A stretch of 64,000 nt of DNA from Escherichia coli (GCF_036507355.1 NZ_AP027877.1), one strand, 5' to 3'. Shown: positions 55,260-62,379, counted from the stretch's first letter. Notes: a model not told the origin generated them from the sequence alone. Numbers and translations are program-made.

Positions 55260-55626
55260 GATTGTGCTCCTTTTGAAAGATGTCAGTAAAATTAACACAC
55301 ATTGTGAATGTCGTGTGTCCGGTAATGCGTTTTTACGACAATAATGCCTGCTTGAAATTGTAGATATTTGCACTACACCCTTTTAAATAAAGCACCAACA
55401 AATCTTCAAATTGCAGGACATATTCTTCTGCCAATATACCATTAAGAAAACATCAAGTTCCCGGCTTGCCAATTTATTAACGCCCATTATAGACGCTGAA
55501 ACAAGCCACGGACAAAGAAGATGCCAAAATTACCGGCAATGCAGAAAAACTCAACGAACTGTTAGGTTAAATGGATAATTTTGAATTTTGGTTCAATATA
55601 GTGACACTATAAAATTACTTTGTATC

Positions 55627-55649
55627 GGGCAGGTGCCCTGCCCTTTTTT
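55627..55649 (+). terminator. intrinsic terminator-like hairpin in non-coding spacer
   Basis: gggcagg-tgc-cctgccc followed by tttttt. Confidence 0.5.
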
Positions 55650-55712
55650 AGTTAAAAAGGGCTGAAAGAAGAAATACGCATCATTCATGGAAAACTCGCC
55701 GCGATATGGTAA

Positions 55713-56015
55713 TTCGCGGCATGGCAATTAACTTGCCAGTCAGAGGATATTGTTGTCCGTTATGGTAGCGAAGATTTTGCCATCAAACTTTTTAATGCAA
55801 CATTGCCGGAAGCAGAGACGGTAGCAGCCAGAGTGAAACAAGAACTTAAACTGGCAGCTATCCCGCATCAGGCATCTGCTGTTAGTGCGTTCGTTACGGT
55901 TAGTCACGGGATTACCTGGTCTGCTCCCGCCAAAACGGCTGAACAAATTATTTCAGATGCCGACGCCGCGTTATACCGGGCGAAAGCAAGTGGGCGAAAT
56001 CGATGGGCTTTATAA
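55713..56015 (+). pseudogene. C-terminal fragment of a GGDEF-domain diguanylate cyclase (no start codon, N-terminus absent)
   Basis: open frame translating ...EDIVVRYGSEDFAIKLFNATLPEAETVAARVKQEL...DADAALYRAKASGRNRWAL: degenerate RYGGEEF-type motif and typical GGDEF C-terminal end, but only about 100 codons and no upstream ATG. Confidence 0.6.
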
Positions 56016-56078
56016 CTATTAGGGGACTGGCTAGATTACGTATCTTCGCTCTTAACAAGGACTGACGGCAGGGCAAGA

Positions 56079-56570
56079 TTACGAAAGCCCGCTCCCCGCA
56101 AGGACTGACGCCAGATAGTTTCTGTCCATGGCTGCTTTTCGCATCTTATGTCTTAACCCTGCCTTGAATACCTTATCATTCGTCAAAATATTAATAGCAA
56201 TGTGCCGTATCCCTGGAAATAATTCTGCTGCATTTCCTCTTCTTATTTTGCAGTCGTCTTCATTCATTACCACGTCCAGACGCCAGTGCAGCTTATTCTC
56301 CACGTGCCAGTGGTTTCGGATTGCTGTGGCGAACTTCTCTGCGGTTAAATCAGCAGAACTGATATAATATCTGACCGTCATTTCTGGCTCTTTCTTTTGT
56401 TCTGCTATTATGGACCGAAAGGAGACTGCCACGCATAATTTCTTCAGCCCTTTCCATTCAAACGTGAAATCAATAAGTTCATCAGGAACATCGCAAACAA
56501 TATGAAGACGGATTTCTTCTCTGCCGTGACTAAAATGCGAATTATTTAGTACAAAAAAAGCGGCGCACCT
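56079..56570 (-). pseudogene. ISAs1-family (H-repeat-associated) transposase, 3' remnant
   Basis: translation ...[78 protein letters not shown]... matches C-terminal part of YdcC/YhhI-type H-repeat proteins; upstream part missing (upper limit approximate). Confidence 0.7.
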
Positions 56571-56636
56571 TGTTCTTTCCCAGATTCCTAATATGGCAAC
56601 TTTAAGTTATCGCCGTCTATACTTATAGAAATTTCA

Positions 56637-57092
56637 TCAGGGGTGACATAAATAGAATTTTTTTTCATCCTCAATTGCCCATAACTGATTAATAAAAAAG
56701 TGTTTTTTATCATCTAATAACAAATCATCACATGTAGTAAAATTATTAATATCAAAAAAATCATCAGCACAATTAATTTTTAAATTTAAAAAATAAAGAA
56801 AAATATTATTGATTGATTTGAGTGTAAACCACTTGTCATTAACAAATTTATAGCCAGATGATTTTATAAAATAATAATTATCTCCTGGTATAAAGGCATA
56901 CATATCATTTAAGGTTATACTCAACAAAAAACTACGACCTGGTTTAATAGTATTCCAGCGTTCAGGATTCGTATTAATTTCAAAAGGACATGAACCACCT
57001 AAGTAGTCCAACGTGATATTCCCAGAGTTGATCCTGGATGGTTTTTTGCATATCGCATCATATTCATCTCCTTTTCCATCTTTTACTTTCAT
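56637..57092 (-). CDS. hypothetical protein, AT-rich; candidate immunity/accessory protein
   Basis: 151-aa ORF; start ATG overlaps stop of upstream ORF (ATGA); no recognisable domain. Confidence 0.4.
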   Translation of the reverse strand: MKVKDGKGDEYDAICKKPSRINSGNITLDYLGGSCPFEINTNPERWNTIKPGRSFLLSITLNDMYAFIPGDNYYFIKSSGYKFVNDKWFTLKSINNIFLYFLNLKINCADDFFDINNFTTCDDLLLDDKKHFFINQLWAIEDEKKFYLCHP

Positions 57093-57379
57093 AGGTAGAT
57101 AATATTTAGAAAAAAATACGTGGTAGAGCTATTGTTAGTAAAGGTTATGTTAGCAAAAATCCTGTTATTTTTTTTACTCATAGCTAATTGAGCATTGACA
57201 TCCGCTATATAATTTATATGATTACATTTTTTCTTACACTCATCATAATTTTCGATAGGATAAATTAATGGCCTTCCTTTGATATCTCTCTCAAGCCCAA
57301 ACCCGTATTTTTTTATTAAAACCATTTCATCCGCAGTCGATTGAAAGGAATAGAAAAATATAATATTTACGATTGTCAT
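57089..57379 (-). CDS. hypothetical small protein, candidate immunity protein for the upstream HExxH toxin
   Basis: 96-aa ORF directly downstream of the metallopeptidase-like gene; hydrophobic N-terminus; AT-rich. Confidence 0.35.
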   Translation of the reverse strand: MTIVNIIFFYSFQSTADEMVLIKKYGFGLERDIKGRPLIYPIENYDECKKKCNHINYIADVNAQLAMSKKNNRIFANITFTNNSSTTYFFLNIIYL

Positions 57380-57431
57380 TATTATGATTTTTTTATAGCT
57401 TGCAGCATTAATATATTTCTCGACTTATTAG

Positions 57432-58223
57432 TTAATGGAGAAGTGTTTTTTCTAATTCCGCTATTTTTTTCTTAACTGAATTGCTTAATATTTCATCATT
57501 AATCGAGTCTATCTCACTTTCAATTAATCTTATTTCAAAATATCTTTCTATGTTATATGCATTCTCAAATATTTGATCTTTTTGTTTAGAGATCAGTTTA
57601 GTTGCAATACGGATATGTTCGTCATATGAAACTTCATCCTCTTTGCACGTTGAATATTTATCAGTAGTTGTATAATCCTGTGACCACATACCACCTTTTT
57701 TATTATCCCCATAATACCACTGAATATGAGACATTTCATGACATAAAGTAGCAACATGAGAATCCTTTCCCGTTACTGGATTTTTTTTGCCATCTCTATA
57801 CTCAAATTTTGCGCCTATGTTAATTATATAGGGCATATCCTTACTTGGGCTGACGAATGCTGCAAATTCATTACAACCTGTATAATTTATAAAACTGCTC
57901 ATTGTTAAATCATTAGCTATAATCATTAATCTTCTCACGCCATCCATCATAAGAAATCTAGCATTCATGCGCCTACCTGTATTATGTCCATATTTTCTTA
58001 TATTAACTTCCTTATTTCCTTTAACACCAAAGATCTTACTGAAATAATATTCCTCCTGTGCTCCCCATCTCAAAAGATCATCTGCTCTTTTTATCAAAAC
58101 CAACTTTTGTGCCTTACGAGCCTTATCAATCATTATTTTAAAATGATCAGTTATTTTTTGCTCTTTCACACATTCTTCTGGCTCTGGCTTTGGTTGTCCA
58201 GAAGTTTGATTATTATCGTCCAT
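57432..58223 (-). CDS. HExxH zinc-metallopeptidase-like putative toxin (orphan effector module)
   Basis: ORF 57432..58280; likely start at Met20 (MDDNNQ..., 58223) with SD ggaagga upstream; motif ATLCHEMSHIQWYYGD (HExxH); very AT-rich; sits in T6SS cargo island. Confidence 0.55.
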   Translation of the reverse strand: MDDNNQTSGQPKPEPEECVKEQKITDHFKIMIDKARKAQKLVLIKRADDLLRWGAQEEYYFSKIFGVKGNKEVNIRKYGHNTGRRMNARFLMMDGVRRLMIIANDLTMSSFINYTGCNEFAAFVSPSKDMPYIINIGAKFEYRDGKKNPVTGKDSHVATLCHEMSHIQWYYGDNKKGGMWSQDYTTTDKYSTCKEDEVSYDEHIRIATKLISKQKDQIFENAYNIERYFEIRLIESEIDSINDEILSNSVKKKIAELEKTLLH

Positions 58224-58410
58224 AGTGTCCTTCCATTGAGAGAAAATCATCATTCGCAAATAGCAACTAAAAAGCAGCATTACTTGACCTTTCCCTGCAT
58301 AACAATATTTATAAAATAATACGTTTTATGATCTCACCTTGGGCTCCCAACAAGATAATTTCAGTTTTAAAGACTTTCACGAAAAAAATATAGAAATACC
58401 TCACCACCCT

Positions 58411-58701
58411 TCACTTACCAATTAATCTCACAGGAAATCCAACTTCCTTACCACAAATACAATCCCAAGTAACACCTCCCAAAATTTTTGATACTTTAGG
58501 CTGCAATGGCATTATTGACATTATAAATTTATCAAGTTCTTCGCTATATTTAATTCCCTTTATATTTCTTATTATTGATATTCTAGCAGTAAAGATAGCC
58601 GTCTCTCCATCTACACTAAAAGTGTAATTACAATTTTTTGTAATCTCATCAAATTCAACCGATAACAAATCAATATTATGGTTTGTAAACACTATGCCCA
58701 T
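58411..58701 (-). CDS. small protein, candidate cognate immunity protein
   Basis: 96-aa ORF whose start overlaps the 3' end of the effector gene by 26 nt; no signal peptide evident. Confidence 0.45.
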   Translation of the reverse strand: MGIVFTNHNIDLLSVEFDEITKNCNYTFSVDGETAIFTARISIIRNIKGIKYSEELDKFIMSIMPLQPKVSKILGGVTWDCICGKEVGFPVRLIGK

Positions 58702-60115
58702 TCCATACCTCCTTAAATTCCTGTTCAGTCATCAGATATCGACTCCCTTGATATGGATCATATATTATCACATTCCCAGCATCATCAACACCCTTAACAA
58801 GTACCCAATGCCCTACTTTACTTCCAGAATCCCACATCATTGCTCCCCATGAACCAGTATTACTGAGGGCATATAAACTAGATTCGCTCACTGCATTCCC
58901 TTCCCAGCCGACATCAAATTTATTAAGCTTGTTTGCCAGCGACGTCATAGATGTTAATTCTGTTCCAATTACATTTTGCGTGACAAAAATATACCTATCC
59001 CTAAGCAACATTTCCCCACAGGCCGCTCCACAGCCTGTTAAAGTCAATTGCTTTATTACATTTGAATCTAAAACCTCATCAAATACTGTCCAATTGCCAC
59101 CAGCACCACCTTCTAAAACTACCGGCTCTACAAATACTTTCCCAGAGATATTTTCTTCTGGTATTTTTGCGGGTATCATAAAGCCCCATAAAAAGCTGGC
59201 AAAATGCTCCAGAGCAATCTGATCACCATTATTTGCATCCATTATCATTTTTTTAAGTGCATCCCATGCTTGCCCATTTATCAATGAATCACTAATATTA
59301 AATAAAGCCTGTTCTTTTTCGTTTAAATTTATATTTGCCTGTTCACATAACCCATCTTCGCCTATCGGGCAAGCAACCGTTGCCGTTGCCGTATCTAACA
59401 GAGCATCGAATGTAACTAAGGCTAAATCCGCCACACCATGTAAAGTGGTGATTGCTCCATTCCCCATTTGAGTAAGTGTGTTCTCTACAAACCATTCTCT
59501 AATTTGAGATTTATCTCCTTCAATATCATTCCTGAGAGATTCTCTGATATTCTTTATTGAAAAAAACTCCCCCCATGATTGGTCAGGATCTTTTATTTGG
59601 AATAAATCATTTTTAACCTCAGGTGAAATATCTCCGTCAAAAATATTACCAACAGAGAGGAGATCCTTCAGAAGCAGTAAATCGTGTATTACTTCAGCAG
59701 TCCTTTCATAATTAAAAGTTCTATCAATGACAGAAATCATTGGTGATTTTATTTTGGTATATAATTTACCAAGGCAGTTATGGTTATTAATCCCAACAAC
59801 TGAACCATGATAAGCGACAGGTCTCCCCTCTATTGTTACAGTCGGACTTCCCGTTAAAATAACGCAGTCACCTGTTCCTTGAGATGTACCAGATATGACA
59901 CCTTTACCGGCATTACTTTGAGTTCCAGCAATCACTGAACCAACATTTAAAGCTCTGCATCCACGCGCCCATACCGTTGAACTGTACTGCCTTTCACTAT
60001 CTAAAGTCTGGTAACTGTCAAAAGGAACCTTGTCACCTCCTACTTCACATACATCTGGTGAAGAGCACACGACTTTAAATCTACATTCACCATCCCCGAT
60101 ATGATAGCTACCCAT
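58676..60115 (-). CDS. T6SS effector candidate: N-terminal PAAR-like (DUF4150-type) domain fused to C-terminal papain/C39-like cysteine peptidase domain
   Basis: 479-aa ORF; N-terminus contains SPDVC and GDCVILTGSPTVTIEGRPVAYHGS segments typical of PAAR-like domains; C-terminus has GCGAACGEML (candidate nucleophile Cys) and GHWVLVKGVDDAGNVIIYDPYQG (His/Asp), the order seen in Peptidase_C39-like/papain-fold domains. Confidence 0.6.
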   Translation of the reverse strand: MGSYHIGDGECRFKVVCSSPDVCEVGGDKVPFDSYQTLDSERQYSSTVWARGCRALNVGSVIAGTQSNAGKGVISGTSQGTGDCVILTGSPTVTIEGRPVAYHGSVVGINNHNCLGKLYTKIKSPMISVIDRTFNYERTAEVIHDLLLLKDLLSVGNIFDGDISPEVKNDLFQIKDPDQSWGEFFSIKNIRESLRNDIEGDKSQIREWFVENTLTQMGNGAITTLHGVADLALVTFDALLDTATATVACPIGEDGLCEQANINLNEKEQALFNISDSLINGQAWDALKKMIMDANNGDQIALEHFASFLWGFMIPAKIPEENISGKVFVEPVVLEGGAGGNWTVFDEVLDSNVIKQLTLTGCGAACGEMLLRDRYIFVTQNVIGTELTSMTSLANKLNKFDVGWEGNAVSESSLYALSNTGSWGAMMWDSGSKVGHWVLVKGVDDAGNVIIYDPYQGSRYLMTEQEFKEVWNGHSVYKP

Positions 60116-60698
60116 AATATTTTTTTCCTATACATTCAGGAATAATACAACTCAGCACTCCTTCTTTCATTCCAAAAAAATCAGGTATTGTCAATCTCCA
60201 GGTAAGGTATATTTCCTGTCGATTTAAATCGATAACCATTGTATCCGCAACAGGTAAGAACATATGAGATGTATTATGCTTGGTTTTTAATATAAGTACA
60301 GGTCGTATACCTGGCAATTTTGTCTTAACAACCTGTTCAAATTTAAAAAAACCTTCAAGAGTGATGTTTTCATCGCCAGAGAGAAACCCCGCGTATATCA
60401 TATCCGGATGAGCACTATTGTAGAACCTCTCATCAAAATCATCCGGCAAATAGGGATAGCGCTTTTCACGCCATACTTCATTGTAGGTTCCTGCATACTG
60501 GAGGCGACTTTTCCACCATCGAGATACAGGGCCAACGCCTTGAAAAAAGTCAGATTCCCCATTAAAAATGGTAGCGTTTTCTGACAAAGCAGAGCTGGTT
60601 ATTTGTGGGAGTTTATATTGACAACTTGTATTAAGTTGGGAAATATCAGGATAATATCCACAACCTACAGGGTTTGCTGAAAAAACCAATTTTCCCAT
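60108..60698 (-). CDS. hypothetical protein, possibly 5'-truncated adaptor (DUF2169-like) for the downstream PAAR-like effector
   Basis: 196-aa ORF between vgrG and the PAAR-like effector; frame stays open upstream of the annotated Met without a start; assignment by gene-order analogy only. Confidence 0.3.
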   Translation of the reverse strand: MGKLVFSANPVGCGYYPDISQLNTSCQYKLPQITSSALSENATIFNGESDFFQGVGPVSRWWKSRLQYAGTYNEVWREKRYPYLPDDFDERFYNSAHPDMIYAGFLSGDENITLEGFFKFEQVVKTKLPGIRPVLILKTKHNTSHMFLPVADTMVIDLNRQEIYLTWRLTIPDFFGMKEGVLSCIIPECIGKKYYG

Positions 60699-61517
60699 AC
60701 CATCTGGTTGCCAAATACCACCGTAAGCAAGCTCATAGCGTAGAGGAATATTAATAATTTTATCGTGAGATGCTGATCGTTCGCTACCACAATCTTCTGA
60801 TCATGACTGCCTTCCTTCTTACTCCCAACATTCACCGTCTGACCCACACCCACCGTAATTTTCTGGTTATTGGTTATGGTTTCCGTGTGGTCGTGTTTCA
60901 CCGTCGTCGTCCGGTCATTCAGCACCTCCGTATCCATGTTCTTCTGCGCATGGATATACACCTGCTCATTACTGGTGGCGTCTTCAAACCGCAGCTCGTT
61001 AAATCCGCTTCCTTTATAGGTTTTTGACCGGATGGTCATCTGCGTCTTCGTTCCCGGCAGGTCGCCCGGCGAACGGTTGTCCTCATGGTAGGTCCGCCCC
61101 ATGATTATCGGCTGGTCCGGGTCGCCGTTCAGAAAATCAACAATCACCTCCTGGCCCACCCGCGGTATCGCCAGGTTACCGAACCCCGGCCCCGCCCACG
61201 CCTGCGATACCCGCACCCAGCATGAACTCGCCTCCGTCATCCCGTGATAACGGTCCCAGTGGAACTTCACCCGTACCCGGCCATGTTCATCGCAGAAGAT
61301 TTCCTCTCCCGCAGGCCCGGTGACAATGGCACTCTGCGGCCCGTCCACCTTCGGTTTGCTTTGCAGCCGTGGACGCCACGTCCGGTCCGCCGGTATCACC
61401 TCTAACTGATTTCCCAGCGTGGTTCCTCTCCCTTGGCTGCCGTGCAGCGCCTGCGGCTGGTTTCCTGACAGAATGCTCTGTACCACCTGCCATTCACGGT
61501 TCAGCATCTTCTGCGGA
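60665..61517 (-). pseudogene. vgrG: vgrG (T6SS spike), distal part, downstream of IS insertion; 3' end abruptly AT-rich
   Basis: translation ...PQKMLNREWQVVQSILSGNQPQALHGSQGRGTTLGNQLEVIPADRTWRPRLQSKPKVDGPQSAIVTGPAGEEIFCDEHGRVRVKFHWDR... (gp5-like region); continues the reading frame of the proximal part across the insertion. Confidence 0.85.
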
Positions 61518-61560
61518 TGAGGTGTACTGGCAATAGCGGACACTACCATTTGTTCTTTTT

Positions 61561-62379
61561 TTAAGCAGCCATCTGATGATATTTTTCCCTGAAGGCTGCC
61601 GGGGAGATATTCCCCAGACGAGAGTGACGACGCTGACGATTGTAGAAAATCTCAATGTATTCCCGTATTACTGAGATGGCTTCATCCCGGTTATTAAAAC
61701 GATAGTGGCTCAGGCTCTCATTTTTCAGCGTTCCCCAGAAGCTTTCCATCGGAGCGTTGTCGTAACAGTTACCTTTACGCGACATTGATGTTTTCAGACC
61801 AAACTGCTCCTGTATGACCCGGTAATCGTATGCGCAGTACTGTGAACCTCGATCAGAGTGGTGGATTAGCCCGGCAGGTGGGCGCTGTCTCCTGAGCGCC
61901 ATAAACAGGGCTTTACCTGTCAGCTCTTTTGTCATGCGCTCTCCCATGGCGTAGCCGACAATTTCGCACGTATAAACATCTTTGATGCCAGCGAGGTACA
62001 ACCATCCCTCCTGTGTGGCAACATACGTCAGGTCCGCCACCCAGACCTGATTTGGTGCTGTAGGAGCGAACGTCTGGTTCAGCAGATTTGGCGCAACTGG
62101 CAGATTGTGGTTCGAGTTCGTAGTCGCTCTGAACTTGCGTTTCTGCTTACAGCGTAGCCTTAGCTCCTTACGAAGACGTGCCAGTCGGTCACGACCAACG
62201 ATGATGCCATTCTCTGCCAGCTCCGTCTGGAGCCGCCGGGTTCCATATGTTTCGCGAGTGCGGATATGTGCCACCTTAATCTCCAGTTTTAGCCGCTCAT
62301 CACTTTGTTTTCTGTCTGAGGGTTCATGCTGTACCCAGTTGTAATAACCGCTCCTGGATACACCAAATACCTGACACAT
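61561..62379 (-). CDS. IS3-family transposase OrfB (DDE integrase domain; expressed as OrfAB by -1 frameshift)
   Basis: 272-aa ORF with DDE-type region (...VWVADLTYV...HHSDRGSQY...CYDNAPMESFW...). Confidence 0.85.
   Translation of the reverse strand: MCQVFGVSRSGYYNWVQHEPSDRKQSDERLKLEIKVAHIRTRETYGTRRLQTELAENGIIVGRDRLARLRKELRLRCKQKRKFRATTNSNHNLPVAPNLLNQTFAPTAPNQVWVADLTYVATQEGWLYLAGIKDVYTCEIVGYAMGERMTKELTGKALFMALRRQRPPAGLIHHSDRGSQYCAYDYRVIQEQFGLKTSMSRKGNCYDNAPMESFWGTLKNESLSHYRFNNRDEAISVIREYIEIFYNRQRRHSRLGNISPAAFREKYHQMAA

Follow-up and report, generated by a model that had tools for sequence, protein, structure and literature searches.

Two overlapping open reading frames downstream of an M35-type toxin gene in Escherichia coli are very probably the remains of one frameshifted immunity gene

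The DNA analysed here is a stretch of 64,000 nucleotides (nt) from the chromosome of Escherichia coli (GCF_036507355.1, NZ_AP027877.1), referred to as the window and numbered from its first letter. On its minus strand, two small open reading frames (ORFs) of 96 and 151 amino acids (aa) follow the gene of a putative type VI secretion system (T6SS) toxin. A first-pass annotation made from the sequence alone had described them as AT-rich, joined by an ATGA stop-start overlap and located downstream of an HExxH toxin, and had offered two explanations, translational coupling of two immunity-like proteins or a single gene split by a frameshift. The description was accurate. At 57089-57092 the letters of the plus strand are t-c-a-t, hence ATGA on the minus strand, and according to the mechanical ORF list the two ORFs share exactly these four bases (ATG at 57092-57090, TGA at 57091-57089). 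Both lie on the same strand as, and downstream of, the HExxH (HEMSH) ORF 57432-58280(-), and the GC content of the gene region is 28.1% compared to 48.7% for the window. With regard to the explanation, the two ORFs are very probably fragments of one pseudogenised gene of 273 codons, the immunity partner of the neighbouring M35-type T6SS toxin. Read in this way, the locus contains the following features.

57432-58223, minus strand: gene of the cognate M35-like HEMSH toxin (aspzincin fold), 263 codons counted from the ATG at 58223, apparently intact
56588-57408, minus strand: remains of one ancestral 273-codon gene, from base-for-base alignment with the intact or near-intact alleles of L001 and L010 (strain LF82) and with P0001
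57406-57408, minus strand: ancestral ATG start (MLQAIKK...), shared by P0001, LF82 and Salmonella: MLQAIKKIIIMTIV...
57388-57394, minus strand: homopolymer of 7 A (coding strand), against 8 in the intact gene, a frameshift that cuts off the true start together with the signal peptide's charged n-region
57089-57379, minus strand: 96-aa ORF, ancestral residues 11-100 plus 6 out-of-frame residues (LNIIYL)
57110-57116, minus strand: homopolymer of 7 T (coding strand), against 8 in the intact gene, the frameshift making the 96/151 split
57089-57092, minus strand: ATGA, in which ATG is the codon of internal Met107 of the ancestral protein and TGA the first stop in the shifted frame (three-frame translation)
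56637-57092, minus strand: 151-aa ORF, ancestral residues 107-250 plus 7 out-of-frame residues (KFYLCHP)
56658-56665, minus strand: homopolymer of 8 A (coding strand), against 7 in the intact gene, which replaces the conserved C-terminal 23 residues
56588-56636, minus strand: ancestral 3' end, now out of frame and untranslated, including the ancestral stop (alignment)
56588-56590, minus strand: ancestral stop TAG, read directly

A base-by-base alignment was made of the window and ten E. coli alleles (11 alleles in total). Compared to the intact LF82 allele, it carries substitutions and three length changes of a single base each, all of them in homopolymer runs, so that the gene measures 821 nt in the window and 822 nt in the intact form. 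No uninterrupted full-length frame was found in the window copy, in which these three changes break the frame relative to LF82 and P0001. The missing base in run 57388-57394 puts the start codon out of frame with the rest of the gene; in the window, the ATG at 57408 opens an ORF of merely 8 codons (MLQAIKKS*). At the second site, the intact junction reads ...TAT TTT TTT TCT AAA TAT TAT CTA CCT ATG AAA... (YFFSKYYLPMK) and that of the window ...TAT TTT TTT CTA AAT ATT ATC TAC CTA TGA (YFFLNIIYL*). The loss of one base in run 57110-57116 shifts the frame into the TGA nine codons on, which overlaps the internal Met107 and gives rise to the apparent overlap. The additional base in run 56658-56665 swaps out the conserved C terminus, and the 23 residues lost there include one of the best-conserved motifs of the family.

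On the coding strand of the 821-nt stretch, 15 ATGA tetranucleotides and 29 ATG are present; the ATGA overlap at 57089-57092 is not in excess of chance expectation. A Shine-Dalgarno-like sequence is absent before the ATG at 57092, where the upstream sequence is ATTTTTTTCTAAATATTATCTACCTATG, and methionine occupies the junction column in only 5 of 48 family sequences and is therefore not conserved. A scan of 56400-58500 for promoters and terminators gave counts no higher than shuffled sequence and did not point to a promoter of its own for the 151-aa ORF. The overlap is a by-product of frameshift and decay and not a coupling signal. The exact 96-aa product is on record as BED22483.1 and occurs on 38 contigs from several sources; the exact 151-aa product (BED22482.1) occurs on one contig only, the E. 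coli chromosome of the window's own genome. In the annotation, both 'hypothetical proteins', which have the locus tags VEE46_22500/22510, should be merged and flagged as one pseudogene, and the many E. coli fragment calls deposited in databases for this locus would likewise be decay products of a single immunity gene.

Forms in which the two ORFs are fused exist. In the closest complete genome (NZ_OZ282453), a single coding sequence (CDS) of 263 aa is annotated over both ORFs, and ORFs of 273 aa are found in LF82, in Salmonella and in P0001. The latter, obtained by protein search, stands for a cluster of 833 member sequences, including the 273-aa protein of Salmonella enterica subsp. arizonae and indica, and starts ten codons further upstream than the 263-aa CDS. 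Allele frequencies were determined with 63-nt queries centred on each run against complete E. coli records. The break lies in a homopolymer run (57110-57116) inside the interval 57.0-57.2 kb, in which the first-pass annotation had advised a check for such indels. The splitting allele with the 7-base run was present in 41 of 626 records, and every other sampled record spans 64 nt, corresponding to the 8-base run, which makes the in-frame allele the majority (approximately 585 of 626). The start-disrupting allele (57388-57394, 7-base run) had an exact match in 26 of 622 records, and about 10 of 60 evenly sampled records were of the same length. For the C-terminal allele (56658-56665), no exact match was found among 627 records and one sampled record was of the same length; this change is either private or a base-calling error.

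The gene is exceptionally rich in runs, with six of at least 7 bases in 821 nt (7.3 per kb), sixteen times the density of the window (0.45 per kb). All polymorphic indel sites among the 11 alleles, seven variable sites altogether, are located at or beside its A/T homopolymer runs. Only the LF82 allele is fully intact, several others contain three or four frameshifts, and the run-length states are scattered over the groups defined by single-nucleotide polymorphisms (SNPs). Ratios of indels to substitutions amounted to 8:49 and 2:13 in the island that carries the gene, compared to 0:52 and 1:77 in flanking core genes. Such a pattern is that of a run-rich gene on which selection has relaxed; base-calling error could contribute at individual run sites.

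An exhaustive phmmer search of 1.84 billion representatives with P0001 as query yielded 88 hits, approximately 50 of which are distant full-length homologues (21-39% identity), besides E. coli fragments. The 48 aligned sequences, 251-317 aa in length, cover the 273-aa query from the N to the C terminus straight across the junction, and a two-gene form was not found among the 47 aligned distant homologues, all of which are single chains across it. The search for fused homologues had been proposed in the first-pass annotation as the test between its two explanations. Its outcome was the reverse of what separate genes predict, and one gene split by a frameshift is favoured because the test came out that way, while the proposal of two coupled immunity-like proteins was abandoned; the downstream one would lack a signal peptide and each would hold just part of one fold. 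With Pfam and NCBIfam, nothing usable was obtained for the ORFs, for the intact orthologue or for any of the 48 family members; Pfam, BsuPI included, returned only three isolated weak hits to domains of unknown function at E-values up to 0.01 on family members. The immunity family has no database model.

A hydrophobic N-terminal segment followed by small residues (e.g. QSTA|DE) was observed in 40 of the 48 members, and the signal peptide of the intact orthologue has no lipobox cysteine. Four cysteines (Cys121, Cys141, Cys214 and Cys227) are conserved in 43-45 of the 48 members, and all four fall within the 151-aa part. As judged from these sequence features, the hydrophobic N terminus and the cysteines point to an exported, disulfide-bonded protein. 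The two fragments in the window divide these properties between them. The 96-aa fragment lacks the charged residues with which the signal peptide begins and breaks off within the beta-sandwich predicted for the intact protein (see below), and the 151-aa fragment has no export signal but carries the four cysteines, for which the periplasm is needed. In addition, the copy has lost the conserved hairpin at the C terminus. Since the fragments can neither form the fold nor reach the periplasm, the window copy is taken to be non-functional; it represents a pseudogene and no longer a working family member.

The toxin gene upstream is still open and 98.9% identical to the LF82 toxin. Its open frame extends beyond the ATG to 58280 (ORF 57432-58280(-), 282 aa), and no signal peptide is present. 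Between the toxin stop at 57432 and the ancestral immunity ATG at 57408 there is a 23-nt spacer, both genes being on the same strand. The toxin contains the HExxH motif as well as the aspzincin catalytic fold, and its model resembles mature M35 peptidases. In Pfam it scores below the gathering threshold of Aspzincin_M35 (18.8 bits, cut-off 30), as does the experimentally characterised toxin M35PAR of E. coli PAR (19.3 bits). A protein of the M35-like type with the motif HE[LM][ST]H is encoded directly upstream of a family member in the loci L016, L018, L020, L021, L023 and L025/L026. These proteins are 29-94% identical to the window toxin, and most have a (N/S)YNIE(R/K)YF motif near the C terminus. 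The contexts comprise four metagenomic or draft contigs, Salmonella (Hcp, VgrG, toxin and the 273-aa gene) and E. coli PAR; L011 has toxin remnants beside two family members. In Salmonella (L025/L026), the toxin is 271 aa long and its stop codon shares one base with the start of the immunity gene. The E. coli toxin ends 8 codons earlier, giving the 23-nt spacer (region 57409-57434 of the window).

The T6SS cluster at metV of E. coli PAR encodes, in this order, a VgrG ORF, a separate DUF2345 ORF, a 262-aa M35-like ORF and a 308-aa ORF, which is the layout described for AKO63_2953 to AKO63_2956 (PMC10673891). In that study, M35PAR was reported to kill E. coli and its immunity protein to prevent the killing. 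M35PAR and the window toxin are 30% identical over the full length (E 7e-33), and the 308-aa protein matched the family profile with a probability of 100% (E 1e-63, hhalign). The pair M35PAR/AKO63_2956 and the window pair are alike in toxin homology, immunity family, gene order and strand. They differ in location, the PAR pair being situated inside the main T6SS cluster directly after VgrG/DUF2345, and in preservation. The PAR immunity protein, approximately 32% identical over the core, is intact with 308 aa, in contrast to the three breaks in the window copy. Two further studies bear on the site of action. For an M35 peptidase encoded in a T6SS effector module of a phylogroup-B2 E. coli, toxicity was seen exclusively when the protein was directed to the periplasm (PMC7904677), and the C-terminal metallopeptidase of VgrG2b of Pseudomonas aeruginosa is a periplasmic toxin with a signal-peptide-bearing, DsbA-dependent immunity protein (PMC6899460). 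The description of the ORFs as immunity-like is supported by the match of the PAR family member to the protein reported to neutralise M35PAR (PMC10673891) and by the toxin synteny. By analogy with these systems, periplasmic immunity to the adjacent toxin is the best-supported function, shown for a family member and inferred for the window orthologue. The effector encoded 23 nt upstream would be a T6SS-delivered zinc-metallopeptidase of the M35 type acting in the periplasm, and the intact ancestral protein a secreted immunity partner of about 250 residues. The window gene is a broken member of the known M35-type T6SS effector-immunity pairs.

The VgrG2b/PA0261 system follows the same logic, a T6SS metallopeptidase toxic in the periplasm (PMC6899460), and M35PAR has been equated with the toxin domain of VgrG2b (PMC10673891). 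PA0261, the downstream immunity protein, likewise has a signal peptide, conserved cysteines and a function dependent on export and DsbA (PMC6899460). It is, however, a small ORF with lipoprotein homologues in enterobacteria (PMC6899460), whereas the window family comprises proteins of 251-317 aa with an ordinary signal peptide; the two are set apart here by description. In addition, the window toxin is encoded by a separate gene, whereas the VgrG2b toxin is fused to VgrG.

An AlphaFold2 model of the immunity protein was built with the 48-sequence alignment (mean predicted local distance difference test, pLDDT, 86.5; predicted template modelling score, pTM, 0.77). Its elements are a signal helix, two further helices, a hairpin at the C terminus and a beta-sandwich that covers residues ~71-190. 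The junction (106/107) lies between strands 98-101 and 107-110 of this one beta-sandwich. Structural similarity to the beta-sandwich of an M35 propeptide or BsuPI-like inhibitor was found for the predicted fold. The immunity model alone matched AsaP1, an M35 zymogen of Aeromonas salmonicida (PDB 2X3A/2X3B/2X3C), over 123 residues and did not match mature-only M35 structures. AsaP1 has 293 ordered residues, of which about 165-170 are catalytic. Because mature-only M35 structures were not matched, and in view of these residue counts, the 123-residue match must be to the propeptide part; this is deduced from the model and not read from the alignment itself. The comparison suggests that the immunity fold most resembles the inhibitory propeptide part of AsaP1. 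The propeptide of AsaP1 reportedly inhibits its protease intramolecularly. More generally, N-terminal propeptides keep M35 zymogens latent (PMC11985622). Apart from the fold, the immunity family has no detectable sequence similarity to the AsaP1 propeptide, and it differs in being a separate, separately exported polypeptide with extra helices and the C-terminal hairpin. The intracellular proteinase inhibitor of Bacillus subtilis (PDB 3ISY), another of the closest known systems, differs in being cytoplasmic and 117 aa long. Nothing of relevance on a propeptide-like T6SS immunity protein emerged from a search of the literature.

From these models, the following mode of action may be proposed. 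The intact protein would be exported by its signal peptide and its four conserved cysteines would form disulfides, whereupon the beta-sandwich could bind and block the incoming toxin, probably as the propeptide blocks the M35 catalytic domain. Propeptide-like blocking of the cleft appears to be the most likely mechanism and is an inferred step. As a tentative extension, to which we give somewhat less credence than to its opposite, the system might be regarded as a split zymogen, in which the effector corresponds to the M35 catalytic domain and the immunity protein to an exapted propeptide-type inhibitor with a gene and a signal peptide of its own. If this were true, self-protection against a T6SS effector would use the same cleft-blocking as the latency of M35 zymogens, and the propeptide-related fold gives a testable mechanism for the immunity family.

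Four other explanations of the locus were considered. Two genuine, separately functional small immunity-like genes, translated by termination and reinitiation at the ATGA, are hardly tenable. The overlap is real, the 96-aa product is annotated on the 38 contigs mentioned, and a downstream product of 167 aa, a length that matches the distance from Met107 to the intact C terminus, is found on 170 contigs; however, the distant homologues (47 of 47) and the great majority of the E. coli records run through the junction in frame, the junction lies inside a single predicted beta-sandwich, the downstream ORF combines the lack of a signal peptide with all four conserved cysteines, its methionine is neither conserved nor preceded by a Shine-Dalgarno sequence, and the window copy contains two further frameshifts. 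The coupled gene pair was contradicted by every comparative test. A gene that is intact in the organism and appears broken through homopolymer sequencing or assembly errors is very unlikely, as it presupposes an error at each of the three runs. The splitting allele occurs in 41 complete genomes, and the 96-aa product, which needs the short alleles of both 57388-57394 and 57110-57116, was recorded from several sources. Moreover, the nearby vgrG and DUF2169 genes are truncated by larger lesions outside homopolymers. What speaks for such errors is that all three differences fall in A/T runs of 7-8 bases, that the allele at 56658-56665 lacks an exact match among the 627 records, that indels are far more frequent relative to substitutions in the island than in the flanking core genes, and that run-length states are scattered across the SNP-defined groups. 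An artefact is possible for the private third change and unlikely for all three.

It is extremely improbable that the full-length protein is still made in some cells or from some transcripts, with the A/T runs as a contingency (phase-variation) device or as places where transcription or translation slips. All six runs of at least 7 bases vary in length among just 11 alleles, and homoplasic states occur (e.g. L003 and L004 differ within the gene only at 57110-57116), but the frameshifts are simultaneous (three in the window, four in L003), and a single slip cannot restore the frame because alleles carry several of them. In addition, the runs are short (7-8 bases), no single tract stands out as a switch, and the flanking island is decaying. 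With seven variable sites and several frameshifts per allele in place of one slippery tract, a phase-variable or programmed frameshift was rejected. Improbable, too, is that the intact 273-aa protein is not an immunity protein but a chaperone- or adaptor-like accessory of the toxin or an unrelated periplasmic protein. This would be in line with the missing Pfam or NCBIfam match, with L012, which has no adjacent M35 gene, and with the fact that the immunity role of the window orthologue is deduced from relatives. Against it, a signal peptide on the protein and none on the toxin is the pattern expected for a toxin acting in the periplasm (PMC6899460, PMC7904677), the position immediately downstream of the toxin is kept across homologues of 21-39% identity, the family member from PAR corresponds to the protein for which neutralisation of M35PAR was reported, and the fold resembles protease-inhibitory domains.

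Some observations weigh against a broken, propeptide-like immunity gene as the preferred reading. One or more of the window's run lengths could be base-calling errors, especially 56658-56665, which is essentially private. The toxin ORF is intact while the immunity gene is broken, which would require that no toxin is delivered between sister cells. L012 is the sole family member, where the upstream sequence sufficed, that is not preceded by an M35-like gene; the PAR 308-aa protein was equated with AKO63_2956 by gene order and not by locus-tag lookup; and the immunity role of the window orthologue itself is assigned by analogy. The likeness to the propeptide is structural only, since the family profile found no match among PDB sequences at E-values up to 10. 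Furthermore, a fusion of toxin and immunity protein through a glycine linker, modelled with a partly paired alignment as a test of the propeptide-like pose, had a pTM of 0.57. Both domains were folded confidently, their relative placement was uninformative and the zymogen pose was not reproduced; AsaP1 aligned with the fusion model over 165 residues, corresponding to one domain.

The broken gene belongs to a low-GC island of T6SS cargo. The flanking E. coli core genes are narI, yddE, nhoA, yddH and pptA, followed by a remnant of an ISAs1 transposase and the island itself. The best-preserved relative is found in PapRG-04-4 (L017), where PAAR, VgrG, DUF2169, a 479-aa PAAR-like/C39 effector, a 96-aa gene, peptidase M35, the immunity gene and the ISAs1 remnant are present. 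Part of the vgrG-DUF2169 segment has been lost in the window compared to PapRG-04-4. The remaining features of the island are:

56079-56432, minus strand: C-terminal remnant of an ISAs1-family (H-repeat) transposase, directly downstream of the broken gene
58411-58701, minus strand: 96-aa ORF without a family hit, overlapping the C39 protein gene by 26 nt
58676-60115, minus strand: 479-aa PAAR-like protein with a C-terminal peptidase C39-like domain
60108-60698, 60665-61549 and 61561-62379, minus strand: vgrG in at least two ORF pieces and DUF2169, of which the C-terminal 196 residues only are left

Degraded 'orphan' effector-immunity modules are known from vgrG/Rhs islands beside ISAs1 (H-repeat) elements, and the window island is a typical example. 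It shares with them the low GC content, the ISAs1 transposase remnant downstream and the truncated vgrG and DUF2169; the related loci L011 and L005/L006/L008 have tandem toxin remnants and putative extra immunity genes, as in the orphan modules. A frameshifted immunity gene is ordinary in a decaying vgrG island. The loss of immunity would be tolerated as the surrounding island itself decays. Homologues of the window toxin are harmless in the cytoplasm (PMC7904677), and because vgrG and DUF2169 are truncated, the lost immunity would presumably carry no cost. The locus may thus serve as a clear example of low-GC, run-rich T6SS cargo that decays by slippage once unused, and of the loss of an immunity gene next to a toxin ORF that remains open.

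Several minor observations were made on the island and its relatives. In P0145, a distant homologue, the family protein runs in frame into the same transposase tail; the junction between immunity gene and ISAs1 transposase therefore recurs elsewhere. P0006 and P0009 from other E. coli, annotated as partial VgrG, are in-frame deletion fusions from mid-VgrG (...NMDTEVL) to immunity residue ~100 (FSKYYLPMKV...), another route by which the island decays. In L005, L006 and L008 (E. coli 95-3322, H22 and EcN), a second 'peptidase M35' gene, followed by a hypothetical gene of 684-822 bp, is located upstream of the immunity gene, and L011 contains two family members, each preceded by toxin remnants; these loci would be tandem arrays of M35 toxin and immunity modules. 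The C39 protein and the ORF 58411-58701 presumably form a second effector-immunity pair, and many E. coli keep just the last 111 codons of the C39 protein. In the metV cluster of E. coli PAR (L016, 20770-24636), a second intact vgrG is followed by hypothetical genes for proteins of 246 and 203 aa, possibly another effector-immunity pair. Finally, a segment of ~720 bp between pptA and the ISAs1 remnant (window 55349-56068) is missing from NZ_OZ282453. It contains a 70-aa ORF (55803-56015, plus strand) that ends in ...ALYRAKASGRNRWAL, which we take to resemble the C terminus of a GGDEF diguanylate cyclase.
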